Origin: a virus
Lineage: Duplodnaviria > Heunggongvirae > Uroviricota > Caudoviricetes > Crassvirales
DNA length: 64,000 bases
Virus record (IMG/VR): IMGVR_UViG_3300037280_000040
Location: 20,379-84,378 of that record
Strand: one strand, 5' to 3'
How positions within the stretch are numbered: the first letter of the stretch is position 1; the number at the start of each line of letters is the position of its first letter. A model generated the notes under the pieces. The model was not told the DNA's origin, made no database searches, and saw only the letters and a list, made by a program, of their open reading frames with translations. Positions 9,154 to 47,434 of this stretch are shown here, piece by piece. Made by a program: the position numbers and the translations under genes.

Positions 9154-9805
9154 ATTTTTTTCTTTTTTGATTTAATGCAATTTTGGTGCACATATTTATA
9201 AAATGTTCTTGAGTATATACATTTTTCATTATATTAATATCCCTATGTACCCATTGTACATTTCCTTCAATATAACCCTTTGTAGAATCTATTCTATCCA
9301 AAGAAGCATCAAAAGCTCCAAAATCTAGATTACCACTATAGACATTTTTTTTATTAATAAGTACTCCTGGTTCAAATAGTTTTATATCTATACCAGATAA
9401 ATTACATTTTTTATTTTGTTTAATAAATAATTCCCATAAATATTCTATAGATATATTAAATTCATGACCTCTTGACTTGGCTGCATTTTTATAATGCCAA
9501 TATAAAGATCTTGGTAAATCCCCTATTCCTTGATGTTTAGGAGAATATCCAACTGAACATATTCTGCCATTTAATTTATTATTTTTCCATTTTTCTCTAT
9601 TAGAACATTTTCTACATCTCGTAGACTTTTCTGATTTTAAAGTATCTCCTCTAATTAATTTTTCAGCTCCACATTTAATACATTGTACTTTTATAAATCC
9701 TCTATGTATATTATTAGTTTTATTCTTAACATTATATACAGTTGAATCAATTACTTTATAAATACCATATATTTCATCTTCTTTAAAATTATATTGTCTT
9801 GGCAT
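9137..9805 (-). CDS. HNH homing endonuclease inserted between two RNR fragments
   Basis: It has a zinc ribbon, CIKCG...CRKCS, and SLDRIDSTKGYIEGNVQWVHRDINIMKN. Its start overlaps the upstream RNR fragment stop as TAATG. Its end overlaps the downstream fragment start by 17 nt. Confidence 0.6.
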   Translation of the reverse strand: MPRQYNFKEDEIYGIYKVIDSTVYNVKNKTNNIHRGFIKVQCIKCGAEKLIRGDTLKSEKSTRCRKCSNREKWKNNKLNGRICSVGYSPKHQGIGDLPRSLYWHYKNAAKSRGHEFNISIEYLWELFIKQNKKCNLSGIDIKLFEPGVLINKKNVYSGNLDFGAFDASLDRIDSTKGYIEGNVQWVHRDINIMKNVYTQEHFINMCTKIALNQKRKKYECLV

Positions 9806-10677
9806 TATAATACTTTTTCTAATTCTGCATCATAACCATCAAATGTACCTCTTATTATAGCTAAATCAATAGTAGAATCTAATTCTCCCATCATTTTAGT
9901 ATAAAGAATTAAATCAGTATATTCTAAAGACTCTTCACTACCATATCTTATACCTAACATAGCAAATACATCTGCTAATCCAGTAAATCCTACTCCAGCT
10001 CTTCTACCTTTTTTAGCAGTTTCTTGGATTTTAATCCATAAATCTAATTCTAATATATCAGGTTCTTCTGCTCTACTAATATGGTCTATAATTCTATCAA
10101 TTGCTTCAACTTCTAAATCAATTAAATCATCTGCTAATCTCATTGTTTTATAAGCTACTTCATATAACTTATCTGTCTCAAATTGAGCAGAATCTGTATA
10201 AGGATTAGATACAAAACTAGCTAAATTAATATGAATTAATCTACAAGAATCATAAGGTTGCATAAAGATTTCACCACAAGGATTTGTTGTAACTCCTCTG
10301 TATTGAGGATATACTCCATCAGGACTATAATCATGATGATTATCTTCAAACATAATTCCTGGCTCAGCAGTATTCCAAGCACAATGTACTAGAGAATTCC
10401 ATAATTCTTTTGCTTTTACTTTCTTAAACCATAATGGATTTAAACTATTTTGAGCTGAATATAACTCATTATAATTAAAATCTCCTATAATCATATTAGC
10501 TCCTGCATTAATAGGAAACTGTTGTATAAAATCTTTATTTTTATCTACTGATTCCATAAATTCAGTAGTAAGCTTTACTGATATATTAGCACCAGTAATC
10601 TTATCTAAATTCTGTTTAGAAGTAATAAAATCTCCACTATCAGGATGTACTATACTAATAGTTTCCATTAATGCCCC
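9805..10677 (-). CDS. Ribonucleotide reductase large subunit, middle exon with the active site
   Basis: The NPCGEI active-site motif and RRAGVGFTGLADVFAMLGIRYGSEESLEY match RNR alpha. It joins in frame to exon 1 as GGRR|GALMETISIVHPD. Confidence 0.7.
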   Translation of the reverse strand, partial: GALMETISIVHPDSGDFITSKQNLDKITGANISVKLTTEFMESVDKNKDFIQQFPINAGANMIIGDFNYNELYSAQNSLNPLWFKKVKAKELWNSLVHCAWNTAEPGIMFEDNHHDYSPDGVYPQYRGVTTNPCGEIFMQPYDSCRLIHINLASFVSNPYTDSAQFETDKLYEVAYKTMRLADDLIDLEVEAIDRIIDHISRAEEPDILELDLWIKIQETAKKGRRAGVGFTGLADVFAMLGIRYGSEESLEYTDLILYTKMMGELDSTIDLAIIRGTFDGYDAELEKVL

Positions 10678-11657
10678 CTATTTGGACTATATCACACCTT
10701 AATTTAATAATTAAGGCTTGGGTTCTAATTCTGGTTATTAAGGGAAACCAATTTCCCTCCAGTAGTCTCTACACCTTCTATAGAATGGTCTATAGCTCGG
10801 CTCGGTATTGCATTATCACTAATGGTTTCACCGAATTCTCCCAATTCAAGACGCAGGGCATTGAATTTATCAAATTTTCTCTTTAATGGTATAAAATCTC
10901 TATCTTGGTATAACCAATCATAGAATTTTAATACATCTTTTTTATTAGAGAATTCTAATACAAAACAATCAGATTTTGTCTTAGGTTTAATAGAAGTAGA
11001 TATCCCTATTTTATATAGTATTTTTTGAGTAGCTAATAAAAGACCATAAGAAGAAGTAAAAGACACTTTTTGCCATATTCTTCCTCTATCTATTCTTTTG
11101 CCCCAAGTTATACAACCATCAGCATCAAATAAACCTTGTATCATATACTTTTCTAAACTATTTTTTAAAATAGGAAGATTTCTTTCTTTTTTAAGAGTAT
11201 TTCCTAAAAATTTAGATAATCCATTTATCTTTCTAGTAATACTAACATCAGGGAATTTTTTAGTAATTTCATTTCTAGTTAAATCTTCAAATGTATTACA
11301 TCCTAATATATTACCTAAAAAATCAATCAATTCTTTATCCCTATGTTGTAGTACTAATTGTACCATATCATTATTTATATAACTATCAGCAGCTATAAAT
11401 CCAATAAGATAAGCCCATTCTTTTGTTTCTATTTTATCTAAAATTAAAGTTGGATTTTTTTTATGAATCATTAAATTAGTTAATTCATACTTTTTAATCC
11501 AATATCTTAAAGATAAAGGTAATAACCCTAAATCTCTTTCTATTTGTCTTACACTTTTTCCCTCTAATAGGAAATTTGATAATTGTTCTTTTGTAATATT
11601 ACATACTCTATTCATTTTCTGTATATATTTAATTAAAATTTAATTAAGAACTTGTTT
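10678..11657 (-). mobile_element. Group I intron in the RNR gene, carrying a LAGLIDADG endonuclease ORF
   Basis: The R-like element is at plus 10762-10774 and the S-like element, GUGAUAUAGUCC, at plus 10684-10695. The core is homologous to the PolA intron, and the variable hairpin shows compensatory changes (ctatag/ctatag here, ctactta/taagtag there). Exon 1 ends ...cgU and the intron ends ...AAAUAG. Confidence 0.7.
10725..11615 (-). CDS. LAGLIDADG homing endonuclease, double-motif, encoded inside the intron
   Basis: The two motifs are LIGFIAADS and GLFDADGCI. Confidence 0.7.
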   Translation of the reverse strand: MNRVCNITKEQLSNFLLEGKSVRQIERDLGLLPLSLRYWIKKYELTNLMIHKKNPTLILDKIETKEWAYLIGFIAADSYINNDMVQLVLQHRDKELIDFLGNILGCNTFEDLTRNEITKKFPDVSITRKINGLSKFLGNTLKKERNLPILKNSLEKYMIQGLFDADGCITWGKRIDRGRIWQKVSFTSSYGLLLATQKILYKIGISTSIKPKTKSDCFVLEFSNKKDVLKFYDWLYQDRDFIPLKRKFDKFNALRLELGEFGETISDNAIPSRAIDHSIEGVETTGGKLVSLNNQN

Positions 11658-12224
11658 ACGTCTACCTCCCTGAGCCACTTCTCTAGTGATTTCAGAGTCT
11701 ACTTCCATAAAAGAAACAGGTCCTGTAGAAGTCTTTGCAGCATTGTTTACAAAAGCTCCATTAGGTCTAAGTAAAGATAAATCTTTACCTACTCCTCCAC
11801 GTCTCTTCATAAGTTGAGCTTGCTCAGTTCTTTTAAGCATAATGCCACCATAAGAATCACTAGGTTGTCCAATTACAAAACAATTAGATAATGAACCTAT
11901 TTGAGTAGTATTACCTAACATACTCATTACTGAACCACCTGGAATGACATATTTAAAATTCTTAAATAATCTATAAATATCAGAATATATATCAGCAGAA
12001 GTAGCTTTTAATAAATCTACTTGTAGCTTTTTTCCATAATCTGATAAAGAATTAACATCATAAGATTTATCTGATTGTTTATAATTCCATTCAATCCTAG
12101 TAAACTCTTTTGCCATTCTTTTGTGCATATCATCAGGAGTTATTTCTCCTTCAATAGCATACTTACTTTTCCAAGCTTGTGTAGCTAATTCATCTCCATT
12201 AAAATACTTAAGTATTTCTTTCAT
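11658..12224 (-). CDS. Ribonucleotide reductase large subunit, 5' exon. No ATP cone is present.
   Basis: GSLSNCFV is the first catalytic Cys motif and VAQGGRR follows it. The ORF tail KQVLN* is intron read-through. Confidence 0.7.
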
Positions 12225-14050: not shown

Positions 14051-14678
14051 TGAAAATTTCCTTCTTTAAAGGAGCTAAGATTTTAATAGCTACAATAGCA
14101 TCTACTTCTGACCTAAATAAACCAATTGTATTGGTAGATTTAAGAAATCCTGGTTCAATAAAATAAGGATTACCTGTAGCAGAACTAATAGTATATAATC
14201 TAGGAGAATTACTAATATGGTCAGGATATTGACTATCTAAAGCAACAGCAATTTCTTTAAGTATTAAACTAAAATAAGCACCTTTATTAATATGTTTAAT
14301 TGCTTTTATGTATTCAACAGCTTCTACTATTGTCAAATTTTCACTAGTTCCTGCCACTTTTTTAGCAAGAATAAACTCATAGTGACTAATACTAGTATGT
14401 ACCAATTTAAGTGTATCAGAAATAGCCACACTAAGGTTAGACTTATCTGCTTTTACACGTTCAATATTTGGTTTATATGTAGCTATTTCTTTTTTTCCTT
14501 CTTCTTTAATATTAATTACTTGGATAATTCCTACACTTATAAGAAAAGGAATTGTATCTTCTGATACTATTACTTCTCTATGAGTACTACTAGTATTATC
14601 TTTTGAAGGAGTAATAAGTAAAACAGTATCACCCATAAATACTTCTTTATCATTCCCCTTAAATTTCAGGTTCTTCAT
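14034..14678 (-). CDS. Hypothetical protein (214 aa)
   Basis: ORF. Confidence 0.4.
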   Translation of the reverse strand: MKNLKFKGNDKEVFMGDTVLLITPSKDNTSSTHREVIVSEDTIPFLISVGIIQVINIKEEGKKEIATYKPNIERVKADKSNLSVAISDTLKLVHTSISHYEFILAKKVAGTSENLTIVEAVEYIKAIKHINKGAYFSLILKEIAVALDSQYPDHISNSPRLYTISSATGNPYFIEPGFLKSTNTIGLFRSEVDAIVAIKILAPLKKEIFSGRRK

Positions 14679-15345
14679 ACCATTTTATTTTTAAATTGTT
14701 TTTTAATTTAAGTAAATTATTAATTTTTATAAACACATCATAGTTGGTTTTAACTCCTAATCTAGCATAATAAGCTGGGTGTTTATATTCAAAAACATAA
14801 TTAAGTTCTTGATTTATATAAGGTTTAAAAGTTTTAGCAGTCTCACCAAATAAAACATAAACAATTCCCATATTTTTATCAGATAATTCAGATAATAAGG
14901 AGCTAATAAACGGTCTCCAAAACATTGTATGTGACCCTACTTTATTTGCCTCAACTGTAAGAGCTGAATTTATCATTAGAATACCTTGTTTAGACCAAGA
15001 TTCTAATGTTGTATCAAATATTATAGGATTCATCATAGTACTTTTAGTATAATCAAGTACATTTTCTTTTATTAGTTCTAAAGAGGGACTTAAATTAATA
15101 GTTCCCTCTTTATTACCAAATAAAATTCCAGTAGCTATGTCCTTTTGAGGATAAGGGTCTTGCCCTATCATAACTACTTTTAAATCAGAATAGTTACATA
15201 AATTAAAAGCTTTAAATATATTTGATTGTAAAGGATATACTATAGATTTTGAATATAAAATACCCAATTTCTGTAGTAATTCTAACAATTTATTTTTATC
15301 TATTACTTTCAACCAGTCATTAAAAAAATTCTCTAGTAAATCCAA
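14659..15345 (-). CDS. Uracil-DNA glycosylase (family 1-like)
   Basis: VVMIGQDPYPQ contains the GQDPY water-activating loop. HPAYYARLG sits near the C-terminus. Confidence 0.6.
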   Translation of the reverse strand: MDLLENFFNDWLKVIDKNKLLELLQKLGILYSKSIVYPLQSNIFKAFNLCNYSDLKVVMIGQDPYPQKDIATGILFGNKEGTINLSPSLELIKENVLDYTKSTMMNPIIFDTTLESWSKQGILMINSALTVEANKVGSHTMFWRPFISSLLSELSDKNMGIVYVLFGETAKTFKPYINQELNYVFEYKHPAYYARLGVKTNYDVFIKINNLLKLKNNLKIKWYEEPEI

Positions 15346-16096
15346 CTTCTGAAGTTATAAAGTTAATACTTTCTTTAAGTAACTCATTCATTACAAGATT
15401 AACATTTTCTTTAGGTTTTACAACCTTTTGTAACCAAGAGCTTTTATCCTGAATTTCTATATCAATAGGTAAACCACCATTATAATTACTTTTACTTATA
15501 TAAGTAGGAATAATCTTATTTATAATAGTTTTAGATATTAAATCTTTAGAAGTAAATGCTATAGGATTAACATAAATAGTTCTTTTAATTTGTGCTACTT
15601 TAAACTCACTTATATTATACTTAATAGTAGTCATTAATAATATATTATAATTAGCATCTACTATTAAACCTTTGCCACAAAAGAATTTATCTCCATTAGT
15701 TATAGTAAAAGGTACAAATCTTGCATTAGCATTCTGTTCATATATAAATTTAATAATAGCATCTCCTGTTTTTAATACAGGAGTAATAATATTTTCTCCC
15801 CAAGATAAATCACCTACTTCAGGCATAGGTATTATTACATTTTTAAAATCATTTATCAAAGTTTCAGCTTCTTCTACTGAACTATTTAATATTATACTTC
15901 TATAGTTTAGCATACTTCTCTCAAATATAACTTTTCCAATAGTAGGAATTTCTACACTAGTAGGATATACATTAGTAATTAAAAACTTGGAATATAATCT
16001 ATTATCTACTAATAATCTATTATAATAAGAATTACTACTATTGGAACTATTACTTATAAATACAGCAAACATACGTTCTATAACAGATTCTCTCAT
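15320..16096 (-). CDS. Hypothetical protein (258 aa)
   Basis: ORF directly downstream of the E1/JAB pair. Confidence 0.4.
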   Translation of the reverse strand: MRESVIERMFAVFISNSSNSSNSYYNRLLVDNRLYSKFLITNVYPTSVEIPTIGKVIFERSMLNYRSIILNSSVEEAETLINDFKNVIIPMPEVGDLSWGENIITPVLKTGDAIIKFIYEQNANARFVPFTITNGDKFFCGKGLIVDANYNILLMTTIKYNISEFKVAQIKRTIYVNPIAFTSKDLISKTIINKIIPTYISKSNYNGGLPIDIEIQDKSSWLQKVVKPKENVNLVMNELLKESINFITSEVGFTREFF

Positions 16097-16097
16097 A

Positions 16098-17108
16098 TCA
16101 ATCTACAGTTTTAAAGTACATAGTACTTGCATTATATTCTGTTAAGAATGGTAGAGTTCTATCTATAATAGGATTACATTTATTAGCTATAAAATTTACA
16201 AATAAATTAACCATAGTAGAAGCTATATGATTAGCCATAAAAGTAGTTTGCTTATAAGAGCAAATAGTAGGGTCAGCTTCTTCATCAGAGAATAAGTACT
16301 CATTAGTATATTTATTAATAGAATAATCATCATTACCTTGAATACATAAAATTTGATATTCCTCAGCAGCTAATCTACCATCAATAAATAAAGCATTGGC
16401 TTTTTCATTACCTTTTAATCTCTTAACATGTTTAAGCCAATTAGTAAAGTATACTTTTCTTGCTTGCATATTATCAAATCCACAAATCATAATGTTTTTA
16501 ACTGAATTATCAACAGTATATCTATCATTATAAGTGTAAATCTTATGAAATTTAGAATAAATTCTTATCATATTAGCTATAGCTCCTACTTTACTACTAT
16601 TTATATCTTGAATACTAAATAGTTGTCCAGACAAGTTACCTTCTTCTACAATATCATTATCAAATAAGACTAATTGTTGTATATTTAATCTTGATAATAA
16701 AAATGCTACATAAGAACCAATACCTCCAACACCTGCTAACATTACCTCTGCTTTCTGTATTTCTTCATACCATTCAGCTGAGCTAAATCTAGAAGTTACT
16801 ACATCTACACTTAAAGACTCTGAGTTAACTGGTATTAAATCAGGTATAGGTTCTAATATAGTTGGTACTGGTGGGGCTATTTGTATAGCTTCTCCACTTC
16901 CTAAATCATCTATATCAAAAAATTCTTCAATATCCAAGGATTCTTCAGTATGTGTACCTGTTATTGGTACTGGTACATCTTCTGCTAATTGATTTGTTTC
17001 ATGTAAATATGCTCCTATACTACTAGCATCTATTGCATCTCTACTAGTTCCAGTTGAATCTACTTCCAATGAGTCTAATAATTCATCTATTACTTCATCT
17101 TCATCCAT
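16098..17108 (-). CDS. E1-like (ThiF/MoeB/UBA superfamily) adenylyltransferase with a 115-aa acidic N-terminal extension
   Basis: The nucleotide-binding loop is VMLAGVGGIGSYVAFLLSRLNIQQLVLFDNDIVEEGNLSGQ, encoded at 16717-16736. ICGFDNMQARKVYF matches the E1 D-x-D-N...R motif. Confidence 0.65.
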   Translation of the reverse strand: MDEDEVIDELLDSLEVDSTGTSRDAIDASSIGAYLHETNQLAEDVPVPITGTHTEESLDIEEFFDIDDLGSGEAIQIAPPVPTILEPIPDLIPVNSESLSVDVVTSRFSSAEWYEEIQKAEVMLAGVGGIGSYVAFLLSRLNIQQLVLFDNDIVEEGNLSGQLFSIQDINSSKVGAIANMIRIYSKFHKIYTYNDRYTVDNSVKNIMICGFDNMQARKVYFTNWLKHVKRLKGNEKANALFIDGRLAAEEYQILCIQGNDDYSINKYTNEYLFSDEEADPTICSYKQTTFMANHIASTMVNLFVNFIANKCNPIIDRTLPFLTEYNASTMYFKTVD

Positions 17109-17121
17109 TTTTATTCATTTT

Positions 17122-18411
17122 TTAAATTACATAATTAGAAAGTTCTGTTATAATAGCATTAAGATACTCATTCATAGGAAATTCTTGCAAATAACTTATA
17201 AGAGAAAATGCAGCTATTGCAGCTGTTTTATCTTCATCAAATGAATATAAATTAACATCATCAATATTGAATAAGATAGTTTCAATAAATCCTGAAATAA
17301 AGAAATCAAATGCTTCTTTAGTAGGTAAAATAGCTGTATAAGCTTCTTCCATCCTAGGTATAAAGTTATTTAAATTTATCTTATTATTCTCAGGAACTAA
17401 CATAGACCCCATAACTATTTTTTTAGCTAATAAGTCAGTTAGTTTATCTTGCAATACTGTATCATAAAGTAAAGAGTTATCCTCTTCATCTGTAGCTGTT
17501 TCCTCTTTAGTAGGAACTGTTATTACAGAATCTTTAATCCTTTTGTCTGAAAATTCTTTAATAGGAAATGTTTTAGCAGTAGGAACTTCTCTTACAACAG
17601 GAATCTTAAAATCTCTATTAAAATCCATTTCCTGCATACCTTTAGTAAAGCTATTATTAGGATTATTACCTTGCCAACCTGCTGTACCATTGTACTTATT
17701 AGATTGATATATAGGAGCTCTATAAGCTTCTCTTTTTTTCTTAGCTATTTCATCTAATCTAGCAATAATTTCAGCATTATTATACGCAGGTACATCAATG
17801 ATTACTTTTAATTTAGACCAAATAATTTCTGACTTTTCCTCATCAATTTCAGTTTCTTCAGTATCAGAAATAACACTACCATCAAAAGTTACATATTCAT
17901 ATAACTCTGTTACTTTTGATTTAGATTTAGTTTTAAGAACAGTAGTAACAGCAGCTGTATAAGTACGTCTATTATTTACAATTAATGACACAAAATGATT
18001 ATGACACATTGCTTCTTCTCTCAAAGTATTAGTATCAGTACCACTAAAGAAAGTTTCCATATTATTATGAGAATGGATTAAACCCATACCACAATCTAAT
18101 AGGTCATTTTCTGCCATATATGTAATAATATCAGGTGATTCTGTATACTCTGTATAAGCAGCACTACCAATATCCATAACATAAATATCTTGAGCTAAGA
18201 CATTTAAATTATTTTCTGTAAATGAACCTTCAGTTGTATAAAATAATACTCCTGACCATTCATCTTTATTAATTTTTGAACAAATTAAATCTATTTTGTC
18301 CTGTACCTCTTTTTTAATTGTTAATGAAAAAGGCTTTTGGACTTCCTTGAACCCTATAACTGGTAATTTCTTCTCCTGTATAGGGATGGGTATCTGTGTG
18401 TTTTGTTCCAT
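17122..18411 (-). CDS. JAB/MPN (JAMM) metalloprotease-domain protein with a roughly 290-aa C-terminal extension
   Basis: The JAMM motif is H113-S-H115-x7-S123-x2-D126 (LIHSHNNMETFFSGTD), with HSH encoded at 18067-18075. Glu residues lie upstream in TTEGSF. Confidence 0.65.
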   Translation of the reverse strand: MEQNTQIPIPIQEKKLPVIGFKEVQKPFSLTIKKEVQDKIDLICSKINKDEWSGVLFYTTEGSFTENNLNVLAQDIYVMDIGSAAYTEYTESPDIITYMAENDLLDCGMGLIHSHNNMETFFSGTDTNTLREEAMCHNHFVSLIVNNRRTYTAAVTTVLKTKSKSKVTELYEYVTFDGSVISDTEETEIDEEKSEIIWSKLKVIIDVPAYNNAEIIARLDEIAKKKREAYRAPIYQSNKYNGTAGWQGNNPNNSFTKGMQEMDFNRDFKIPVVREVPTAKTFPIKEFSDKRIKDSVITVPTKEETATDEEDNSLLYDTVLQDKLTDLLAKKIVMGSMLVPENNKINLNNFIPRMEEAYTAILPTKEAFDFFISGFIETILFNIDDVNLYSFDEDKTAAIAAFSLISYLQEFPMNEYLNAIITELSNYVI

Positions 18412-19651
18412 AATTTACGTTACTAATTACTATTATTTTTTTAACTATGTGTTGTACTAATCCTGGATTTAATAAGATTGAGTGGTTATCTACTGTATTC
18501 TCTAAGGTACTTCTTGTAATAGTTATAGGAATTCTATTACCTTTAAAGGTACAGGCAGATTGTCTCTCTGCTTTTTCTATATCACTATCACTAACACTTT
18601 GAGAAACTGACAATACTTTAATAAAAGTAGATGATACTATAGCTTTTACTAATAATCCTGATGCTAACATAGCATTTAAATTAGGAAAAAGAATTCCTTC
18701 TTTATTTTTTTCATTGATATACTTTATAAAAGTATTACTAATTAAAACATTAGTATCAACAAAATTCATAGCTATATTATAAGCATTATTATTAAAATTA
18801 AATGGCAATACATTACTATTAAATAAGTATTCTAAGAATCCAGTGATTATAGGTTTAATACTAAATCCTGGTATATTATTAATTGAAGTATAATTTTGCT
18901 TATCTAAAGTAAAACTTTTATGTTCTCTATAACTAAAATTTCTTTTACCTATATTTTCAAATCTTTGATAAGGAGTTCCTTTAATAGATTCTACTTGAAC
19001 ATATTTAGATAACTCTAGACAGAACATTAACCATTCATCTTCATCATAATGAGTAGTTAATCTTAATATAGTATCTCTAATTGGACCTGAGCCAGTACAA
19101 CATCCTTTAAATAAGTTAAGTTGTGATAATTCAATTTGATGTACATGGGAATGCATATATAAGCTTGCAAGTTCATCTTCTGTATATTCAGCTCTATTAA
19201 ACTTCATAGCTTGTCCTCCCATAGTACCTTCATTATCTATATGGATTCTTGCAAATAACTTATTAATCTCCATATGTTTATCATTCTCATTAGAAATGGT
19301 AACTTTAGGAAAATATACTAATATAAATATTTCTTTAAAATATTCAAATATTATTCTTTCAACAATCTTATTAAAGAATAAATCTAAAATATCAGGATTA
19401 AGGATAGTTTCTATTCCCTTATTAGCTTTTATATTACTATAACAAATAAATTCAGGAGAATCTTCACTATACTTAGAAAAACTAACTATATTTCCTATCT
19501 TTATATCTTTAGCTATGATTGAAAAATCTTCATAACTTAAAATATGCATGTCTACTTTATCTTCTCCAAAAAAATCTGAGAATATAGTAAAAACTTGGTT
19601 AGGAATTCTAACCAAGTCTTTATATTTATTTGTAAGAATCTCTTCTAACAT
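18314..19651 (-). CDS. Hypothetical protein (445 aa). The true start is probably an internal Met, because the 5' end overlaps the JAB gene.
   Basis: Long ORF immediately upstream of the JAB/E1 pair. No motif assigned. Confidence 0.4.
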   Translation of the reverse strand: MLEEILTNKYKDLVRIPNQVFTIFSDFFGEDKVDMHILSYEDFSIIAKDIKIGNIVSFSKYSEDSPEFICYSNIKANKGIETILNPDILDLFFNKIVERIIFEYFKEIFILVYFPKVTISNENDKHMEINKLFARIHIDNEGTMGGQAMKFNRAEYTEDELASLYMHSHVHQIELSQLNLFKGCCTGSGPIRDTILRLTTHYDEDEWLMFCLELSKYVQVESIKGTPYQRFENIGKRNFSYREHKSFTLDKQNYTSINNIPGFSIKPIITGFLEYLFNSNVLPFNFNNNAYNIAMNFVDTNVLISNTFIKYINEKNKEGILFPNLNAMLASGLLVKAIVSSTFIKVLSVSQSVSDSDIEKAERQSACTFKGNRIPITITRSTLENTVDNHSILLNPGLVQHIVKKIIVISNVNYGTKHTDTHPYTGEEITSYRVQGSPKAFFINN

Positions 19652-19662
19652 ACTTTTTCTAC

Positions 19663-20427
19663 TTATTTACGAATAGAAGCTTCAAATTCTCTTAATTCAG
19701 CATCTGAGTAAGAAGAAGTTAATTCTTCTACTTTAGCTACTACTTTATCTTCAGACTCAGTAACTGCATGGTCATCAATACTGGCAATATCTGTTACTAA
19801 AGTATCATACTCATCATCAGCAATAACTTCAGCACCAAAGAGTAAACCTACTATTGCAGTCAATACACTTTTTACAGTAGCTTTAGAAGCTTTTACTTCT
19901 TTAGAAGCAGCTGGTTTTTTAGCTTCTTTTTTAACTACAGGAACAATTTCTTCCACTTTAACTACTGGAGTAGCAGGATTTTTCTTACTAGCTTTAGATG
20001 CAGTAGTACTTACTCCTTGTTTAGAGTTTTTATGTCCATCAACAAATTTTAGCAAATCTTCAGTTTTTACCTGAGTATAGTTTTTACCATCAAATTTTAG
20101 TTTAATAGCATCACCTAATTTGTTTTCTTTGATATAATCAAAGGCATCAGTTCTATCAGAACCTGATTTGATTTTTTTGTTTTTGAGAGTAAGCATAATT
20201 ACTAACTCATTGGTGGTTTCACCTTTATAAGGAAGATTTGTAGGTAATACAGAGCTGTCATCCAATAATTCTACCTTAGCAATTGCTACATAGAATGTCA
20301 TATCATCAAAGTTAATATTGTTTTCAATTAAATTTCCTTTTAATTGACCCAATGTTTCAGCATTACTTACAAAAGTGATTTTACCTTGACCTGCTGCTTT
20401 AATTACCGTAATTTTTCTTGGTTCCAT
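19663..20427 (-). CDS. Hypothetical protein with a Lys/Ala-rich region and a compact N-terminal domain of about 90 aa
   Basis: KKEAKKPAASKEVKASKATVKS is histone H1-like low complexity. The N-terminal domain ends ...KIKSG. Confidence 0.4.
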   Translation of the reverse strand: MEPRKITVIKAAGQGKITFVSNAETLGQLKGNLIENNINFDDMTFYVAIAKVELLDDSSVLPTNLPYKGETTNELVIMLTLKNKKIKSGSDRTDAFDYIKENKLGDAIKLKFDGKNYTQVKTEDLLKFVDGHKNSKQGVSTTASKASKKNPATPVVKVEEIVPVVKKEAKKPAASKEVKASKATVKSVLTAIVGLLFGAEVIADDEYDTLVTDIASIDDHAVTESEDKVVAKVEELTSSYSDAELREFEASIRK

Positions 20428-20461: not shown

Positions 20462-21481
20462 TTATTTATTTATAAGTTTAAAGATTATTTCTCTAAACAT
20501 TTCTACACCACAATTTTTTCTTAAATCTGATGAGTCTTTTGATAGATACTTTTGATTAATTTCTATCTGAGGTAGACCAAACTCATTTGCTATTTTAGCT
20601 CCTAATGTTCTACCAGGATTATCTTTCTTTTCCCAATCATTATCATATAAAACCCAAACATTTTTAAATCTGAATTTTAATTCTTCAACTACTTGTTTCT
20701 TAGGAAAATAAGATTCTGCTTGTAGACTGCAACTAGGAATACCTGTATTCTCCCATATACATAAAGCATCTTTTCTACTTGAAGTGATAATTACATCATC
20801 TCCATATTGAGGAAGTTGTTGCCATAAATCCCAAACGGAAGAATCATGATTATTAGACCATTTATGGTTAATACTATAAGGTTGATAGATTTTAATAGAC
20901 TCTACTCCATCCTTAAATTCAACATATACATATGCATATTTTTCTGCTCCAATGACTATTTTTTGGTCATCTTTTGTTATTATAATATGAGAAATAGGAT
21001 AAGTACAAGAGAATTTTAACCAAGGAAGGGATATACCATATTGTTTCCAATATGCTATATCATAGTCCTTCCATTCTCTAACTTTAACTTGTAGTGTTAC
21101 TGGGGTTTTATTAATCTTAATTTCTTTTATATTATTTAATTTGGAGTTTAATGTATAGTTAGGTTCTAATAAGTTACTATTATCTAATAACTCTTCAGTT
21201 ATTTTGTTAATAGTTTCTTGTATAGTAGTATGTCCCCACATTAATTGTAGTAAATTAAAGGTATTACCTCTTTCTTGAGTTTTAAAATCTCTAAAGAATA
21301 TATGTTCACCATCATAAGTATTTAAACTTAATGAGGGATGATTATCTACTCTTAAAGGAGAATGTATTAAACAAGGAAGTTCTGTTATACCTAAATAATA
21401 AGCTAATATCTTAGATTCTGATACTATACTACTTAATTCATTGATAGACATACTATCTTTTCTACTTTTTCCAAATCCCAT
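20462..21481 (-). CDS. DnaG-like DNA primase (zinc-binding plus TOPRIM)
   Basis: CLIHSPLRVDNHPSLSL resembles the CHC2 zinc finger CPFHxEKTPSF. VLYDNDWEKKDNPGR is a TOPRIM DxD motif. Confidence 0.55.
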   Translation of the reverse strand: MGFGKSRKDSMSINELSSIVSESKILAYYLGITELPCLIHSPLRVDNHPSLSLNTYDGEHIFFRDFKTQERGNTFNLLQLMWGHTTIQETINKITEELLDNSNLLEPNYTLNSKLNNIKEIKINKTPVTLQVKVREWKDYDIAYWKQYGISLPWLKFSCTYPISHIIITKDDQKIVIGAEKYAYVYVEFKDGVESIKIYQPYSINHKWSNNHDSSVWDLWQQLPQYGDDVIITSSRKDALCIWENTGIPSCSLQAESYFPKKQVVEELKFRFKNVWVLYDNDWEKKDNPGRTLGAKIANEFGLPQIEINQKYLSKDSSDLRKNCGVEMFREIIFKLINK

Positions 21482-21490: not shown

Positions 21491-22429
21491 TTACATAGGT
21501 AAATCATTACCTCCAAAGAAACTACCTAAATCAGCAGCTGCTACTGGAGGTTGTCCAGCTGGTGCTTCTGTAAATGTAGTAGCATTTACTACATATTCAT
21601 GCAAAGGTTCAATACTAAATTCTGTTTTAGAATAAGCATTATTAGCCTTAGCATCTTTAATAGCTGCATCTACTTTAGAGTAATCAGCAATACTATTTCT
21701 AATAGGCATTCTACTAAAAATATCTTGATACTGTTTACCTTCATCTATAGTTTTAATACCTACTGCTAACTTGATTTTATTTTCAGGTTGTAACTTGATA
21801 AGTTCCTTAATTTCTTTTACATTACCTGTAAAATAATTAGCAATATTATCTAATCTTGCTTCAGCATCAGATATATTATCAAGAGTTACAACTTCCCCAT
21901 TTTTCTTTTTGTAAGACTTATTAGGAATATTCAAATACACTTTTAAGAAGGCAGTTAATTCTTCTTCACCTACTACTACTTTTTTGTAAGGTCCTTCAAA
22001 CCAAGTAGCAACTTTTTCAGGGATTGCTCCAGTAGCTACATCATCAACACCTACCCAAGTACATTCTCCATAAGCATTGATAACCTGAACTTTAGTTTTA
22101 TCTTTATTCAGTTTATCTTCTTGTTTAAGGAAGAAGCTTTGTTTAGTAAGTAATTCAATACCATTATTTTTATCAGGTACTGTTTTAATAATAAAGTCAA
22201 GTCTTACTTGATTAACACCTGTTTCTTCTTCTACTGAAGTATATTCAGGTTCTTTCTCAAGTTCTCTACCATAAATCTTTTCAGATTCAGCCATAGTAGG
22301 ATTTAAAGCAATTACATTGAATACACCAATACCAATGTATTTAGGATAAACTACTGCATCTGTAGTTTCTCTACCACCACCAAATGCCATAAACAATGAA
22401 CCACTACTTAATTTTTCTTCTTCTTTCAT
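21491..22429 (-). CDS. Putative ssDNA-binding protein
   Basis: It lies between the primase and the helicase. It ends FFGGNDLPM, reminiscent of SSB C-terminal tails. Weak call. Confidence 0.3.
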   Translation of the reverse strand: MKEEEKLSSGSLFMAFGGGRETTDAVVYPKYIGIGVFNVIALNPTMAESEKIYGRELEKEPEYTSVEEETGVNQVRLDFIIKTVPDKNNGIELLTKQSFFLKQEDKLNKDKTKVQVINAYGECTWVGVDDVATGAIPEKVATWFEGPYKKVVVGEEELTAFLKVYLNIPNKSYKKKNGEVVTLDNISDAEARLDNIANYFTGNVKEIKELIKLQPENKIKLAVGIKTIDEGKQYQDIFSRMPIRNSIADYSKVDAAIKDAKANNAYSKTEFSIEPLHEYVVNATTFTEAPAGQPPVAAADLGSFFGGNDLPM

Positions 22430-28813: not shown

Positions 28814-29224
28814 TGGTGGAGCTAGAGGGAGTCGAACCCTCGTGTTATCTTAATACTTACTAATAATCTTATATATGCTTAGTATTTACTGTACTTTTTC
28901 AGCTATTTCTAGTAATAGAGTGAAATATTGAAAACTCTAGGACTGTTTGGGACACAAACAGACACCACCATGCAATGAGATTGCAATACTTAATATTCCT
29001 CAGTAAGGAGGCAATATATCTCAAGACTTTTTAAGAAAGTTTAAACTTTTTACAACTTTATTTGATAAGGTTGTTGTCACCCCAGTTCTCTTACGCTACT
29101 AAAGCAAGCTTTGCAGCAGGAACAAAAACAATAGTTTTGCCTGTTATTCTTCTTTGAGTATTTAAAGGACTCCTCCATGCATAAATTACTACTTTTCTTG
29201 AGATAGTCTAAACCAACTAGCCCC
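28814..29224 (-). ncRNA. ssrA: tmRNA-like RNA (ssrA-like), about 411 nt
   Basis: The 5' end, GGGGCUAGUUGGUUUAGACUA, parallels E. coli GGGGCUGAUUCUGGAUUCGAC. The 3' end is GAGGGUUCGACUCCCUCUAGCUCCACCA, with a T-arm, an acceptor stem with a G3:U wobble, and an encoded CCA. A tag-like ORF reads AAUAACAGGCAAAACUAUUG...GCUUUAGUAGCGUAA, giving GKTIVFVPAAKLALVA* from a GGC resume codon or AKLLFLFLLQSLL* from GCA. Confidence 0.55.
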
Positions 29225-38585: not shown

Positions 38586-38625
38586 AATGTTCTTAAGTAC
38601 TAAGATTAATAATTTATTTAATTGT

Positions 38626-38698
38626 GATTCAGAAGGGATTCAAACCCTTGACCCCTACCTTAGAAGGGTAGTGCTCTATTCAGCTGAGCTACTGAACC
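38626..38698 (-). tRNA. tRNA-Arg (anticodon UCU)
   Basis: Manual fold: acceptor GGUUCAG/CUGAAUC, D stem GCUC/GAGC, anticodon stem CUACC/GGUAG with loop CUUCUAA, T arm AAGGG-UUUGAAU-CCCUU. Confidence 0.7.
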
Positions 38699-44123: not shown

Positions 44124-44194
44124 AGTTTCCTAGTGTAATGGTAGCACAAGAGTCTTTGGTCCTCTTAGTTAAAGTTCAAATCTTTAGGAGACTA
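44124..44194 (+). tRNA. tRNA-Gln (anticodon UUG)
   Basis: Manual fold: acceptor AGUUUCC/GGAGACU, D stem GUG/CAC, anticodon loop CUUUGGU, T arm UAAAG-UUCAAAU-CUUUA. Confidence 0.55.
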
Positions 44195-44203
44195 CAATAA
44201 TAT

Positions 44204-44275
44204 GCCTTTATAGTGTAATGAATAGCACACGATTCTTCTAAGATTATAGTATAGGTTTGAATCCTATTAGGGGTA
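44204..44275 (+). tRNA. tRNA-like, probably tRNA-Arg (UCU), with a weak anticodon stem
   Basis: Acceptor GCCUUUA/UAGGGGU is wobble-rich. The T arm is AUAGG-UUUGAAU-CCUAU. The anticodon loop is CUUCUAA, but only 4 of 5 stem pairs form. Confidence 0.4.
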
Positions 44276-44290
44276 CAATAATTAATAAAT

Positions 44291-44557
44291 ATGATACAAA
44301 GAGTTCCTGTATTGAGAGAATGTTCTTATAAAGAATATAATGATAACATAGATAAACATCCTGATGAATATCTTAGATTATTTGTAGTTGATAGTAATAC
44401 TGAAAGTACTGAGGATATTACAAAAGAGGTTGATGATAATATTGATGCAATAGGTAATACTGATAAGAATAAGTTTTACAAAGTATTAGGATTAGTTAGT
44501 TCTCAAGAGTTAGAAAAAGATATACAACAAACACAACAAAGTAGTTTGTTGAATTAA
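44291..44557 (+). CDS. Hypothetical acidic protein
   Basis: ORF. Confidence 0.35.
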   Translation: MIQRVPVLRECSYKEYNDNIDKHPDEYLRLFVVDSNTESTEDITKEVDDNIDAIGNTDKNKFYKVLGLVSSQELEKDIQQTQQSSLLN

Positions 44558-44718
44558 ATCATAAATGTTTTTAATAAAGTTGATTTAGCTATACTTAGTC
44601 TGTGAAGATAGAGATAGCACAAAAATATAGATATAGTTCAGTTGCTAGAATGCTTGGTTTGGGACCAAGAGGTCAAGAGTTGGAGTCTCTTTATCTATAC
44701 AATTTATTTTAGAATTAA

Positions 44719-44932
44719 AATGGAAGAAGAAAAGAAAACATTAGAACCTTATCAACTAAGAGTTATTGATGAGTTTAAAGATATTGATTTTAAAGTAAGA
44801 AAGATAGAGAAATTTATATTAACTGATGTATATAAAAATTTATCTAAATCAGAACAAAGTATGATAGACTTACAGGTTATGTATATGACTGGTTATTATA
44901 AAGTTTTAATGGAAAGAATAAATAGATTTTAA
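44719..44932 (+). CDS. Hypothetical small protein. The start was moved to the internal MEEEKKT.
   Basis: ORF. The upstream part of the listed ORF is unlikely to be coding. Confidence 0.35.
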
Positions 44933-44935
44933 TAA

Positions 44936-45009
44936 GGGGTCTTAGCTCAATTGGCTAGAGCGATTGCTTTGCAAGCAATAGGTAGTGGGTTCAATCCCCA
45001 CAGATTCCA
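44936..45009 (+). tRNA. tRNA-Ala (anticodon UGC)
   Basis: Acceptor GGGGUCU/AGAUUCC with G3:U70. D stem GCUC/GAGC. Anticodon stem AUUGC/GCAAU with loop UUUGCAA. T arm GUGGG-UUCAAUC-CCCAC. Confidence 0.75.
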
Positions 45010-45014
45010 CATAT

Positions 45015-45088
45015 GTTCTAATAGCTCAATTGGTTAGAGCTTTTGACTGTTAATCAAAGGGTTGTAGGTTCAAGTCCTACTTAGAACG
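45015..45088 (+). tRNA. tRNA-Asn (anticodon GUU)
   Basis: Acceptor GUUCUAA/UUAGAAC. Anticodon stem UUUGA/UCAAA with loop CUGUUAA. T arm GUAGG-UUCAAGU-CCUAC. Confidence 0.75.
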
Positions 45089-45111
45089 CAGTATTAATTT
45101 AATTAAAAACA

Positions 45112-45414
45112 ATGGCACAAATTGAAGTAATGTTAGAGATTATAGATGATGTAATTCCTTTATATCCTGATTTAGTATCAAAAGATTATAAAGAAACTAT
45201 CATATATGATTATAAAAATTTATTAGATACTAAAGAATCTCTATATAAATATAGAGAAATAGTAAGAGAATTAGAAGTAGCTTTAAAAGAAAGAGAATAT
45301 AAATTTAATAAACAATCTCAATTTTTTAATATTGTTTATAAGACTGAAATTAAACAAGGAGTTGATAAACCTGAATATGCTGATACTATGCATGTAAAGG
45401 GAAAAGTATATTAA
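45112..45414 (+). CDS. Hypothetical protein
   Basis: ORF. Confidence 0.4.
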   Translation: MAQIEVMLEIIDDVIPLYPDLVSKDYKETIIYDYKNLLDTKESLYKYREIVRELEVALKEREYKFNKQSQFFNIVYKTEIKQGVDKPEYADTMHVKGKVY

Positions 45415-45415
45415 T

Positions 45416-45643
45416 ATGACTTGGGAAGAAGCTTACTTAGAGATGGAGAAAGGTAATATTATTACCACTCCTAATAGTCCTAATTATTGTTTACTATATG
45501 CTCCTAATCATATATTAGTATTTTGTGAACCTGATAGATTATATCATATTAGTAGTAATAAAAGAATTAAAGAAGTTACTGATTATATAGTTGATAATAC
45601 TAAGAGAGATATTATTAATAATTTAGTAATAAAACTAAAATAG
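45416..45643 (+). CDS. Hypothetical small protein
   Basis: ORF 2 nt after the previous stop. Confidence 0.35.
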   Translation: MTWEEAYLEMEKGNIITTPNSPNYCLLYAPNHILVFCEPDRLYHISSNKRIKEVTDYIVDNTKRDIINNLVIKLK

Positions 45644-45677
45644 TTTATTTTTATCTTCCTACTCAATTTTAAAGCGT

Positions 45678-45938
45678 ATGAATAGATACTTTATAGTTAA
45701 TCCAAATCTTTATATATCTAAAGATAAATACATAGTAAGACTAACTGAATACAATATTGATACTCATATCTTTAAAGGAACTAAGATTAGTTGGATTACA
45801 AATGATGAGGATGGTAAAATAGAAGATATTAGAATAGAAGATATTGAATTGGATGATAATAAATTATCAATATTTAAAGAAATAAATAAAAGAATTTTTT
45901 ATAAGATATTATTAGTACTATTAAAGAATTCTTATTAA
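45678..45938 (+). CDS. Hypothetical small protein
   Basis: ORF. Confidence 0.35.
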   Translation: MNRYFIVNPNLYISKDKYIVRLTEYNIDTHIFKGTKISWITNDEDGKIEDIRIEDIELDDNKLSIFKEINKRIFYKILLVLLKNSY

Positions 45939-45956
45939 CCTTAAAAACTTAATAAA

Positions 45957-46397
45957 ATGGACAATTTTGATTTAGATTTAAGTCTAAGACCTAAGGGTGG
46001 TAGTGGTAATACTAGTGGTACTAGTACTTTTAAAGATTTTATATGTAAACTTGAAAGTTATAAAACTAAATTTAAGAATTTACATTGGGGAGCTATGAAT
46101 GATACTTTACATTTAAGAGTAGACCAATTCTTAGATGAGTTAACTGACTTCCAAGATGAATTATCTGAGACAGGGCAAGGTATTATAGGATTCCAATTTG
46201 GACCTAATGATATAGTTACTACTCACTTAAATTATACTGACCCAATAGTAGCTTTAACTACTCTTAAAGATAAAACATTAGCATTTCATAAAAGTATTAA
46301 TTCTAATCCTGAATTAATTGGTTTAGTAAATTCTGTAGAAGGATTTATGACTATAGTAGGAAAATTCTTATATTTATTTAGAATAGCTGCTAAGTAA
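45957..46397 (+). CDS. Hypothetical protein (146 aa)
   Basis: ORF. Confidence 0.4.
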   Translation: MDNFDLDLSLRPKGGSGNTSGTSTFKDFICKLESYKTKFKNLHWGAMNDTLHLRVDQFLDELTDFQDELSETGQGIIGFQFGPNDIVTTHLNYTDPIVALTTLKDKTLAFHKSINSNPELIGLVNSVEGFMTIVGKFLYLFRIAAK

Positions 46398-46406
46398 TTA
46401 GTCTAA

Positions 46407-46479
46407 GGACCAGTAGCTCAGTTGGTAGAGCACCTGACTCATAATCAGTAAGTCCCAAGTTCAATCCTTGGATGGTCCA
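46407..46479 (+). tRNA. tRNA with a CAU anticodon, Met or Ile2-lysidine type
   Basis: Acceptor GGACCAG/AUGGUCC with a G7·A66 mismatch. D stem GCUC/GAGC. Anticodon loop CUCAUAA. T arm CCAAG-UUCAAUC-CUUGG. Confidence 0.55.
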
Positions 46480-46480
46480 C

Positions 46481-46553
46481 TGTGTGGAAAGCTCTTATGG
46501 TGAGAGTGCCAAATTGTGGATTTGGAGGGAGGGTTCGAGTCCCTACTACACCC
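46481..46553 (+). tRNA. tRNA-like, probably tRNA-His (GUG). The acceptor/D-stem junction is irregular.
   Basis: Clean anticodon arm CCAAA-UUGUGGA-UUUGG. T loop UUCGAGU. Discriminator C, as in tRNA-His. Three A residues separate the acceptor and D stems. Confidence 0.4.
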
Positions 46554-46558
46554 TTAAT

Positions 46559-46631
46559 GGAAATATGGCAGACATGATGTATGCACTAGTTTGAAGCACT
46601 AGCTAAGGGAGTTTGAGTCTCTCTGTTTCCA
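46559..46631 (+). tRNA. tRNA-Phe (anticodon GAA)
   Basis: Acceptor GGAAAUA/UGUUUCC. Anticodon stem CUAGU/ACUAG with loop UUGAAGC. T arm GGGAG-UUUGAGU-CUCUC. Confidence 0.55.
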
Positions 46632-46692
46632 CAATATTAGTTAATACTTAAAACTTTAACAATAATAATTAGGTCATGTAGTTTATTTTACT

Positions 46693-46700
46693 TACCTTTG
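46693..46700 (+). promoter_or_regulatory. Promoter -7 box TAccTTTG inside TTTTACTTACCTTTGT, upstream of gene 46724
   Basis: Motif family match. Confidence 0.45.
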
Positions 46701-46723
46701 TATCAACAAATAAAAAATAAAGT

Positions 46724-47092
46724 ATGAGTGTAGTTTTATTAAATAGTTTGAATGCTGATAGAGATTTTATTTTAAATCTTAATGGTATTTTTAATAATGG
46801 AAAAATTATAGATAAAAAATTATTTTTTCATTCTGAAATTTATATATATTCTAATTCTACAGTAGAAGGAGTAGTAATGTATGTACCTACTAATGAGGTT
46901 TTTCTTAGAATTAAAGTAACTTATCCTACCCAAAATATTGCTAATAAGAGTGCATGGATTATGACTAGTAACTTAGAAGAAGAATTATTAAGACAAATAT
47001 TATTTGCTAAAGAAACTAATAATACTATAACTGATACTAAAGGTAATATTATTAAAACATTTGCTGATTATAAAAAAGAAATAATGCCTTGA
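46724..47092 (+). CDS. Hypothetical protein
   Basis: ORF behind the promoter motif. Confidence 0.4.
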   Translation: MSVVLLNSLNADRDFILNLNGIFNNGKIIDKKLFFHSEIYIYSNSTVEGVVMYVPTNEVFLRIKVTYPTQNIANKSAWIMTSNLEEELLRQILFAKETNNTITDTKGNIIKTFADYKKEIMP

Positions 47093-47171
47093 TGGTGGAA
47101 TTGGTAGACACGCAGGACTTAAAATCCTGTGAGCAGTAATGCTCGTATGGGTTCAAGTCCCATTCAAGGTA
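47086..47171 (+). tRNA. tRNA-Leu (anticodon UAA), type II with a long variable arm
   Basis: Acceptor GCCUUGA/UCAAGGU. Anticodon stem CAGGA/UCCUG with loop CUUAAAA. Variable-arm hairpin GAGC-AGUAAU-GCUC. T arm AUGGG-UUCAAGU-CCCAU. Confidence 0.75.
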
Positions 47172-47326: not shown

Positions 47327-47337
47327 CAAAAAAAAAT

Positions 47338-47411: not shown

Positions 47412-47434
47412 CTAAATACTTTAAATATATAAAT

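Follow-up and report, generated by a model that had tools for sequence, protein, structure and literature searches.

A candidate ubiquitin-like activation and conjugation cassette with Bil-like gene order in a crAss-like phage genome

A stretch of 64,000 nucleotides (nt) from a Crassvirales genome (IMG/VR record IMGVR_UViG_3300037280_000040, positions 20,379 to 84,378), hereafter the window, encodes an E1-like adenylyltransferase beside a JAMM/JAB metalloprotease. Such a pair is the core of ubiquitin-like protein (Ubl) modules or of sulfur-carrier modules. What is it doing in a phage, and where are its partners? The original prediction had proposed this core from two adjacent and co-oriented genes, and both do lie on the (-) strand. 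It had seen no separate Ubl and no E2. That part has to be revised, since both are probably present, the Ubl in the N-terminal domain of a protein called here X and the E2 in a protein called Y. The pair belongs to a block of five genes at 15320-20427 on the (-) strand, in the order X, Y, JAB, E1, Z. We read this block, with a chance slightly better than even, as a divergent Bil-like conjugation cassette. The proposal of a module core gained computational support from the carrier and E2-like candidates and from the conserved gene order. The features of the block are given below in the order of transcription, all on the (-) strand, with lengths in amino acids (aa).

19663-20427 (-): gene X, 254 aa, predicted Ubl precursor, homologue of crAss001 gp79
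20161-20427 (-): residues 1-89 of X, predicted Ubl beta-grasp domain; the codon of Gly89 (20161-20163) is the predicted site of JAB cleavage and of E1 adenylation
19666-20160 (-): residues 90-254 of X, C-terminal part, predicted to be a module released by cleavage
18314-19651 (-): gene Y, 445 aa, multi-domain, predicted Ubl-conjugating enzyme, homologue of crAss001 gp78
18956-19396 (-): UBC/UEV/RWD-like domain of Y, about residues 86-232; codon of Cys185 at 19097-19099
17122-18411 (-): JAMM/MPN+ (JAB) metalloprotease gene, 429 aa, catalytic domain at about residues 28-160 (17932-18330), homologue of crAss001 gp77
16098-17108 (-): E1-like adenylyltransferase gene, 336 aa, core at residues 106-336 (16101-16793); codon of C283 at 16260-16262
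15320-16096 (-): gene Z, 258 aa, the fifth gene, without a recognisable domain

The E1-like protein carries AGVGGIGS and DNMQAR, and the codon positions of both were checked. The earlier assignment to the ThiF/MoeB/E1 type on these motifs was borne out by Pfam ThiF (PF00899), which it matched over residues 110-220 with 60.4 bits against a cut-off of 28.1 (E-value 1.8e-16). Its profile matched 70 E1-like sequences of the PDB. Among them are UBA5, MccB, PaaA, TcdA, ThiF, and MoeB, with E-values of about 1e-13 to 1e-10. The best is UBA5 (1e-13), and this match is confined to the Rossmann half of the E1. The residues G126, G128, D150, N158, Q162, K173, D212, and R217 are invariant in six diverse homologues, and the motif D212-N-M-x-x-R217 and the ATP/Mg motifs are intact. 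One compact domain of about 225 aa makes up the conserved core, and in FpV4 and Dulem the whole protein is no longer than 228-231 aa. In the window the core is preceded by an acidic N-terminal extension, as had been noted, with 27 acidic residues and 1 basic residue among residues 1-105. The extension varies in length and is missing in some homologues. C283 is kept in nine of ten diverse E1s, that is, in every cassette-linked one examined, and the exception comes from a Xanthomonas phage with an unrelated gene context. It is a candidate for the thioester cysteine of the E1. It may be the counterpart of the cysteine of UBA5, MoeB, and ThiF in the crossover loop, which a thioester requires and which some members of the superfamily lack or can do without.

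Homologues of this E1 are named "thiamine biosynthesis protein (ThiF)" in dozens of records, including crAss001, the PhiCrAssBcn series, cr85_1, cr112_1, and the FpV series. The scores of the window protein lie far below the equivalog cut-offs for ThiF and MoeB (71.8 against 159 for NF006395, 63.9 against 152 for TIGR02354, and 41.3 against 275 for TIGR02356). No thiamine genes are found near the cassette in the window or in crAss001. Therefore, the name ThiF is a misnomer spread by similarity, and the E1 is not a thiamine ThiF. The block did not qualify as a PRTRC cassette (ParB-related, ThiF-related) either. The PRTRC ThiF model TIGR03736 gave 28.7 bits against a cut-off of 144.75, and the other four proteins of the block had no NCBIfam match. 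Among the PADLOC models, those of the Cap2 E1-E2 proteins scored best with the E1 (1.4e-13), and BilD followed at 1.3e-5 and 22 bits. The comparison with BilD and Cap2 that had been suggested thus gave matches to both. Membership of the Bil family, however, did not hold.

The JAB protein contains GLIHSHNNMETFFSGTD. Its JAMM motif, E ... H-x-H-x7-S-x2-D, is complete, and the zinc site HxH-x7-S-x2-D had been correctly described as intact. E51, H113, H115, S123, and D126 are invariant in 11 diverse homologues down to 24% identity. All 11 homologues matched Pfam Prok-JAB (best E-value 3.8e-5) and matched no other family consistently, while the window protein itself scored 20.1 bits, under the cut-off of 25. 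The PADLOC JAB model was matched at 4e-4, and the profile search of PDB sequences returned CSN5 (0.002) and Pyrococcus JAMM1 (0.035). The long C-terminal extension is real, at about 270 aa rather than the roughly 290 first noted, and is helical and partly conserved. The protein is a predicted Ubl-processing and deconjugating peptidase.

Three places had been named for the missing carrier, namely the E1 extension, the JAB extension, and the N-terminal domain of the 254-aa protein. The E1 extension was rejected as variable and often missing. The JAB extension was rejected as helical and without a conserved terminal Gly. The candidate that stood is X. Its N-terminal domain closes with KIKSG, the Gly being residue 89, and a linker rich in Lys and Ala comes next, much as had been described. 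An AlphaFold2 model was built for X from an alignment of 28 homologues, with a mean predicted local distance difference test (pLDDT) score of 77. Residues 4-81 are modelled as b-b-a-b-b-(b-b)-b with pLDDT above 90. The confidence falls at residues 81-90, after which a separate helical domain begins. The modelled N-terminal domain has the beta-grasp fold. Among its fold matches, ubiquitin-type proteins fit better than MoaD, which is also among them.

The last strand is followed by an eight-residue tail ending in K-K-I-K/R-S-G, which in the window reads K84-K-I-K-S88-G89. Gly89 is present in all 118 intact domains among 122 unique X homologues, and the residue before it is almost always Ser. The tail is kept even in the most divergent members, at about 20% identity, as VKSG, PKSG, VDSG, TKSG, or IDGG. 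Beyond the Gly lies a linker that differs in length between homologues and leads to a conserved Arg. An invariant Gly that ends a flexible tail beside a variable linker resembles a recognition site for a protease and an E1 and not a passive linker. The extreme C-terminus of X is not conserved, and the invariance of Gly89 therefore points to this residue as the activated carboxylate. According to the model and this conservation, the missing carrier is probably the N-terminal 89 residues of X. The beta-grasp domain and the conserved Gly at the end of its tail that had been asked for are there. As encoded, however, this Gly is not C-terminal, being followed by 165 residues in the window and by 101-206 across the homologues. 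Residues 90-137 form a three-helix domain with the conserved R92 and G-K-N-Y-T118. Then come a low-complexity linker rich in Lys, Ala, and Pro, two helices, and an acidic tail with the conserved C-terminal motif S-x-Y-S-D-x-E-I/L-x-x-M (19666-19710). X and 27 homologues have no Pfam, NCBIfam, PHROG, or PADLOC family. The X profile matched only SipD among PDB sequences, at chance level, and the C-terminal part gave no significant PDB or Pfam match.

The junction after Gly89 is also the place where X is interrupted in three IMG/VR relatives, L007, L027, and L032. An open reading frame (ORF) of 157-170 aa for an HNH-type homing endonuclease is inserted there right after the Ser-Gly codons.

L007, 3144-4357: insertion that splits X, with an HNH ORF
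L027, 3368-4297: insertion that splits X, with an HNH ORF
L032, 2985-4286: insertion that splits X, with an HNH ORF

In these three relatives alone the Ubl ends two residues past the Gly, as a 91-residue ORF closing with SGKF or SGIC, and the remainder of X restarts as an ORF of its own. Homology to uninterrupted X genes stops exactly after the Gly codon, and this natural split agrees with a junction at Gly89. A group I intron was looked for at the three insertions and none was found in Rfam, though splicing may still occur. If the two halves are made separately, they evidently function as separate proteins. The insertion site may also mirror the conservation of the DNA, since homing endonucleases target conserved DNA.

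The remaining part is an E2, for which the 445-aa and 258-aa neighbours of the pair had been named. The 258-aa protein Z drops out, with no invariant Cys or His, and Y is the probable candidate. The Y model has a mean pLDDT of 81. Residues 86-232 are modelled as a helix, a four-strand meander, a loop, and three helices. The loop past the meander holds the invariant Y165-x-H167-S-H169, F181, and C185-x-G187, and the invariant E221-S222 follow. C185 lies between strand 4 and the next helix and is invariant in ten Y homologues down to 19% identity. The loop residues as a whole are invariant down to about 20% identity, with one divergent member reading H-P-H ... F-C-L-G. This layout, with a His motif first and then an invariant Cys in the stretch that leads from the meander into the following helix, is that of an E2 active site, and Y is probably the missing E2 in the light of this model. 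The HPN motif that had been named as a mark of an E2, and that lies 7-10 residues ahead of the Cys in such enzymes, is not there. Instead, Y has Y-x-H-S-H at 16-18 residues before the Cys, a longer spacing than in canonical E2s.

Y belongs to a large family of its own, with 1,358 matches in 90% identity clusters and 2,687 clusters at 50% identity. None of the comparisons connected it with a known one. There was no Pfam match for 16 members at E-values up to 1, and its profile found no PDB sequence at E-values up to 10. Against the BilB sequence of the original paper, hhalign gave a probability of 0.2%. Against an approximate UBE2D2 query it gave 0.1%, and the sole aligned stretch, FILVYFP/FLTIHFP, is suggestive to the eye but statistically meaningless. 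Foldseek found nothing under an E-value of 0.5 for the Y model in the PDB. The best 150 matches of a Y-profile search of representatives were all close relatives, with no bridge to a known family. Precomputed Pfam results for a related 99-kb contig showed no match for X, Y, or Z, even a faint one. PHROG families exist for Y, JAB, and E1, all of no assigned function.

How firmly do these genes belong together? In the window X, Y, JAB, and E1 adjoin with small gaps or overlaps. The order X-Y-JAB-E1 is kept in 81-85 related loci and recurs in contigs of far greater divergence, and the block as such is found in hundreds of viral contigs. Such recurrence places the block far beyond a chance adjacency. 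Bajarodcaudo virus 1, FpV4, and Dulem virus 41 keep the five-gene order as well. The crAss001 counterpart is gp79-gp75, with a uracil-DNA glycosylase next in line. Its third product is named "metalloprotease domain containing protein" and its fourth "thiamine biosynthesis protein, ThiF", and the other three are listed as hypothetical. The earlier remark that no annotated crAss-like module seemed to fit the pair was therefore only partly right: the module is conserved in crAss001, but it is annotated by similarity only and has no assigned role. A tblastn search found the E1 in 75 annotated phage records. They comprise crAss001-like Bacteroides phages, uncultured crAss-like genomes, FpV4-like phages of Flavobacterium psychrophilum, and one Xanthomonas jumbo phage.

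A survey of 185,579 prokaryotic species, with one representative genome per species, turned up the JAB gene in just 14 contigs. All 14 are metagenome-derived assemblies, nearly all labelled as metagenome-assembled genomes (MAGs). Those with enough sequence show the X-Y-JAB-E1 order in a phage-like context, with members down to about 20-30% identity. The cassette is therefore read as essentially viral. Divergent whole cassettes were also seen in a 640-kb contig of a Bacilli MAG (L091) and a 374-kb contig of a Puia sp. MAG (L093), the sizes of which, beyond those of phages, suggest an integrated element or a chimeric assembly. The Xanthomonas phage is PhiXhv-15 (L005). Its ThiF-like gene (84889-85572 of the record, 24% identity) lacks the conserved Cys and has genes for DNA ligase and topoisomerase on its two sides. 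An ORF of 892 aa without a Pfam match comes before it. The idea that this ORF is a Y-JAB fusion was dropped after the Y and JAB profiles failed to match it, and the E1 therefore stands in a different context there.

Gene Z always comes after E1, overlapping it by 1-4 nt, and evolves fast. It has no invariant polar residue, and the genes that take its place in distant relatives show only marginal similarity to it. No informative family for Z came from Pfam, NCBIfam, PHROGs, or PADLOC. As a speculation, Z could be a specificity factor or a substrate.

Several known systems resemble the cassette in part. For the compact E1 and the Ser-Gly tail, the closest working analogy is UFM1/UBA5/UFC1. UBA5 is a short homodimeric E1 with its catalytic Cys within the adenylation domain. 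The tag UFM1 has one Gly at its end, with a non-Gly residue before it, once a cysteine protease has trimmed the trailing residues. The cassette shares the compact E1, with UBA5 as its best PDB match, and its tag would likewise end in a single Gly after trimming. In contrast, it uses a JAMM enzyme, and Y shows no detectable relation to UFC1 apart from a UBC-like fold in general. Bil systems, those of type II especially, have the four functions of the cassette in an identical order, Ubl, E2, JAB, E1. The order bilA-bilB-bilC-bilD is constant there, the Ubl is first trimmed by the JAB enzyme so that its Gly is laid bare, and the E1 and E2 conjugate it to lysines (10.1101/2023.09.26.559546). There are also clear differences. 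The cassette lies in the replication block of a lytic-type crAss-like phage and not in a cellular defence island with capH/capP. Its E1 is a single domain of about 225 aa, whereas BilD has tandem inactive and active adenylation domains and a mobile Cys domain (10.1101/2023.09.26.559546). The extra domains of X are C-terminal, while bacterial Ubls carry theirs N-terminally (PMC11601603). Y, with 445 aa and extra domains, has no sequence similarity to BilB.

In the BubAB system a Ubl fusion is cut out by the operon's own peptidase, the Bub enzymes lack catalytic cysteines and act via oxyesters, and the second protease is a serine protease (PMC11601596). Unlike this Bub (6E/DUF6527) system, the cassette keeps a conserved Cys in both E1 and Y, and its peptidase is a separate JAMM protein. 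The tail-assembly proteins TAPI and TAPK of phages lambda and T1 are similar to X and JAB in that a Ubl fusion is encoded beside a JAB protein, and they are the only phage example of this kind so far described. The Ubl there has a conserved terminal Gly and is joined by a linker to a C-terminal domain, and the adjacent JAB is predicted to cut at this place (PMC1779556). However, TAPK is a JAB and NlpC/P60 protein, the genes lie in a tail-assembly block without E1 or E2, and no sequence relation to the cassette was detected. Type II CBASS also sets an E1 adenylation domain and a JAB peptidase (Cap3) into the conflict of phage and bacterium. There, Cap2 is a fused E1-E2, the C-terminus of the CD-NTase is activated in place of a Ubl, and a CD-NTase and an effector are present. 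The cassette neighbours include no CD-NTase or effector, and the cassette E1 is separate and short. Finally, the pairs ThiS-ThiF, MoaD-MoeB, CysO-MoeZ-Mec+, and TtuB-TtuC combine a beta-grasp carrier with a C-terminal Gly and a ThiF-type enzyme, and some sulfur-carrier systems have a JAB enzyme that trims the carrier (PMC1779556). They differ from the cassette in its Ser-Gly tail, in the lack of a rhodanese or another sulfur-transfer partner, and in the presence of an E2-like protein.

Taken as a conjugation cassette, the block would work as follows. X would be made as a precursor, with the Ubl domain (residues 1-89) fused to a 165-residue C-terminal module. The JAMM protease would cut after Gly89, giving a tag that ends in K-S-G and a freed C-terminal module. 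The compact E1, probably a homodimer like ThiF, MoeB, and UBA5, would adenylate Gly89 with ATP, and the tag would probably be loaded on Cys283 as a thioester. From there it would pass to a second thioester at Cys185 in the E2-like domain of Y. Y, possibly aided by its own C-terminal domain or by Z, would then link the tag to a lysine of the target. The target may be a phage or host protein, perhaps one associated with replication given the neighbouring genes. The JAMM protease may also undo the modification. The analysis itself supplies the folds and families, the invariant residues, the gene order, and the co-occurrence, and from these the cleavage, the adenylation, both thioesters, the conjugation, and the target are deduced.

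Several points weigh against this reading. Because 165 residues trail the putative tag, far more than the up to 9 of BilA (10.1101/2023.09.26.559546), cleavage at Gly89 is a step that we infer. The tag ends in Ser-Gly and not in Gly-Gly. C283 is unmapped onto a solved E1, and the profile of the C-terminal half of the E1 has no PDB match. PADLOC gave no match to BilA, BilB, or BilC, and the BilD match reached 22 bits only. An alternative for the invariant His-x-His, Cys, and Glu of Y is that they bind a metal, in a UEV-like domain without catalytic activity, and we grade the E2 assignment of Y, made from its model, as weak. For the proposed cascade there is neither an E3 nor a target. The highest single-family hidden Markov model scores of the E1 are those of sulfur-carrier ThiF models. 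With these points in mind, our confidence is fairly high for a role of the block in activating and processing a Ubl, and moderate for a full conjugation cycle through Y.

The ThiF scores, together with MoaD among the fold matches of X, make a carrier of the CysO/Mec+ type a rival that deserves weighing. X(1-89) would then be a protein like ThiS, MoaD, CysO, or TtuB, of which the JAB enzyme exposes Gly89, as Mec+ does for CysO. The E1 would adenylate it, and a host sulfur donor would turn it into a thiocarboxylate. Y would then use this sulfur to thiolate a nucleotide, DNA, tRNA, or a cofactor. Several results do not agree with this. The ThiF and MoeB scores are far under the cut-offs, the tail is Ser-Gly and not Gly-Gly, and ubiquitin-type proteins fit X better than MoaD. 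No rhodanese or sulfur-enzyme match was found in the seven proteins scanned or in the crAss001 neighbours, and the block and its neighbours hold no cysteine desulfurase, PP-loop ATPase, or ThiG/MoaE-type partner. Moreover, Y with its invariant Cys is always present and models as a UBC/UEV/RWD fold, not as a known sulfurtransferase. We consider a sulfur carrier unlikely, and less likely than protein conjugation.

Slightly less probable again are two further explanations. Among antiphage systems, Bil and type II CBASS rely on conjugation by E1 and E2, which JAB enzymes reverse (PMC11601596; 10.1101/2023.09.26.559546). The phage JAMM enzyme might strip such host Ubl conjugates, be they Bil tags or a Cap2-primed CD-NTase, while the E1, the E2-like protein, and the Ubl act as decoys or competitors. 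The match of the E1 to Cap2 models at 1e-13 and the fast evolution of Z, as an arms race predicts, would suit this counter-defence. Even in very divergent phages, however, every catalytic residue of the E1 and the candidate Cys of Y are invariant. The co-occurrence of the four genes is almost perfect, and the cassette always has its own Ubl with an invariant Gly, which decoys would not need. Nothing links the distribution of the cassette to hosts with Bil or CBASS, though no test aimed at this was made. The other explanation is processing without conjugation, for which lambda and T1 TAPI/TAPK provide a described phage arrangement (PMC1779556). Here the Ubl would serve the C-terminal module of X as an intramolecular chaperone or as a timer until JAB removes it. 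The E1 would act on some other substrate, a peptide C-terminus or a nucleoside, as MccB, PaaA, and TcdA do. These three are among its best PDB matches, and the weakness of the E2 assignment also speaks for this explanation. However, the lambda system has no E1, whereas the cassette E1 is strictly linked to X, Y, and JAB, and its core of about 225 aa lacks an MccB-type peptide-clamp domain as far as the sequence tells. Gly89 is invariant and the extreme C-terminus of X is not, which also fits processing alone poorly. Both explanations appear improbable to about the same degree, and the divergent Bil-like conjugation cassette is retained as the preferred reading.

The cassette lies within a long run of genes on the (-) strand of an AT-rich phage genome with a GC content of about 0.26-0.30. 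It is flanked by the following genes.

20462-21481 (-): primase-like ORF, 339 aa, matching a PHROG DNA primase (E-value 1e-46); it precedes X in transcription
14659-15345 (-): ORF of 228 aa, in the position of the uracil-DNA glycosylase of crAss001 gp74 and of related contigs

A link to replication proteins is plausible from this position between a primase and a uracil-DNA glycosylase. An ORF of 312 aa two genes upstream of X ends in GGNDLPM (21491-21530). The acidic C-termini of this protein and of X (19666-19710) recall the acidic tails by which replication proteins recruit partners.

The junctions within the block are tight. Comparison of the loci showed overlaps of 1-4 nt between JAB and E1, between E1 and Z, and between Z and the next gene. 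The overlap of Y and JAB is longer. In the window the JAB ORF begins 98 nt ahead of the Y stop codon (18314-18411). Relatives range from 20 to 125 nt, with 62 nt as the usual value. Measured against Y, the JAB frame is +1 in 80 of 81 loci, and the ORF coordinates of the overlapping divergent MAG contigs give +1 as well. The cause may be translational coupling or a compositional bias, or else a programmed +1 frameshift giving a Y-JAB fusion.

Other features of the window were noted in passing. ARAGORN reported a transfer-messenger RNA (tmRNA) at 28814-29224 (-) with the tag peptide GKTIVFVPAAKLALVA, while Rfam at gathering thresholds gave no tmRNA in the whole window. Either the AT-rich DNA has produced a false positive, or the phage tmRNA is a very divergent one. 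Of the eleven tRNA genes, one lies at 38624-38698 (-) and ten are clustered at 44124-47412 (+). The clustered ones are Gln, Arg, Pro, Ala, Asn, Met, His, Phe, Leu, and Met, and the cluster lies just past the flip of coding strand and GC skew at about 41-42 kb. The ribonucleotide-reductase region at 9805-12224 (-) is apparently split into ORFs of 194, 296, and 287 aa, compared with one 2.6-kb gene in crAss001. Introns, inteins, or a different organisation of the reductase may account for this.

Prokaryotic Ubl conjugation (Bil, type II CBASS, and Bub) has so far been characterised as antiphage immunity. No phage-encoded counterpart of it was found in the searchable literature. This literature, the coverage of which does not extend to most subscription journals, also held no description of the cassette in crAss-like or other phages. 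The block may tentatively be proposed, though with less than an even chance, as the first complete phage-encoded ubiquitination-like conjugation system, carried by a large clade of crAss-like gut phages (crAss001 and DAC15/17), FpV4-like phages of Flavobacterium, and more distant uncultured relatives. The chemistry and the operon logic are of Bil type. What is new here is the viral genome, the differing architecture, and the fact that two of the four core proteins are in undescribed families. A confirmed cassette would thus add two families without described relatives, X and Y, and would correct the widespread misannotation as "thiamine biosynthesis protein" in dozens of phage records. The proposal can be tested, as crAss001, DAC15/17, and FpV4 are cultured with their hosts.

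If the reading is true, the phage turns a bacterial antiphage chemistry against its host or to the control of its own replication. A complete virus-side cassette would show that this chemistry is used by both sides of the conflict, and a ubiquitination-like system in abundant gut phages would surprise specialists. Few viruses of the human gut are as abundant as the crAss-like phages, and knowing what the tag is attached to could help to explain their replication in Bacteroides.

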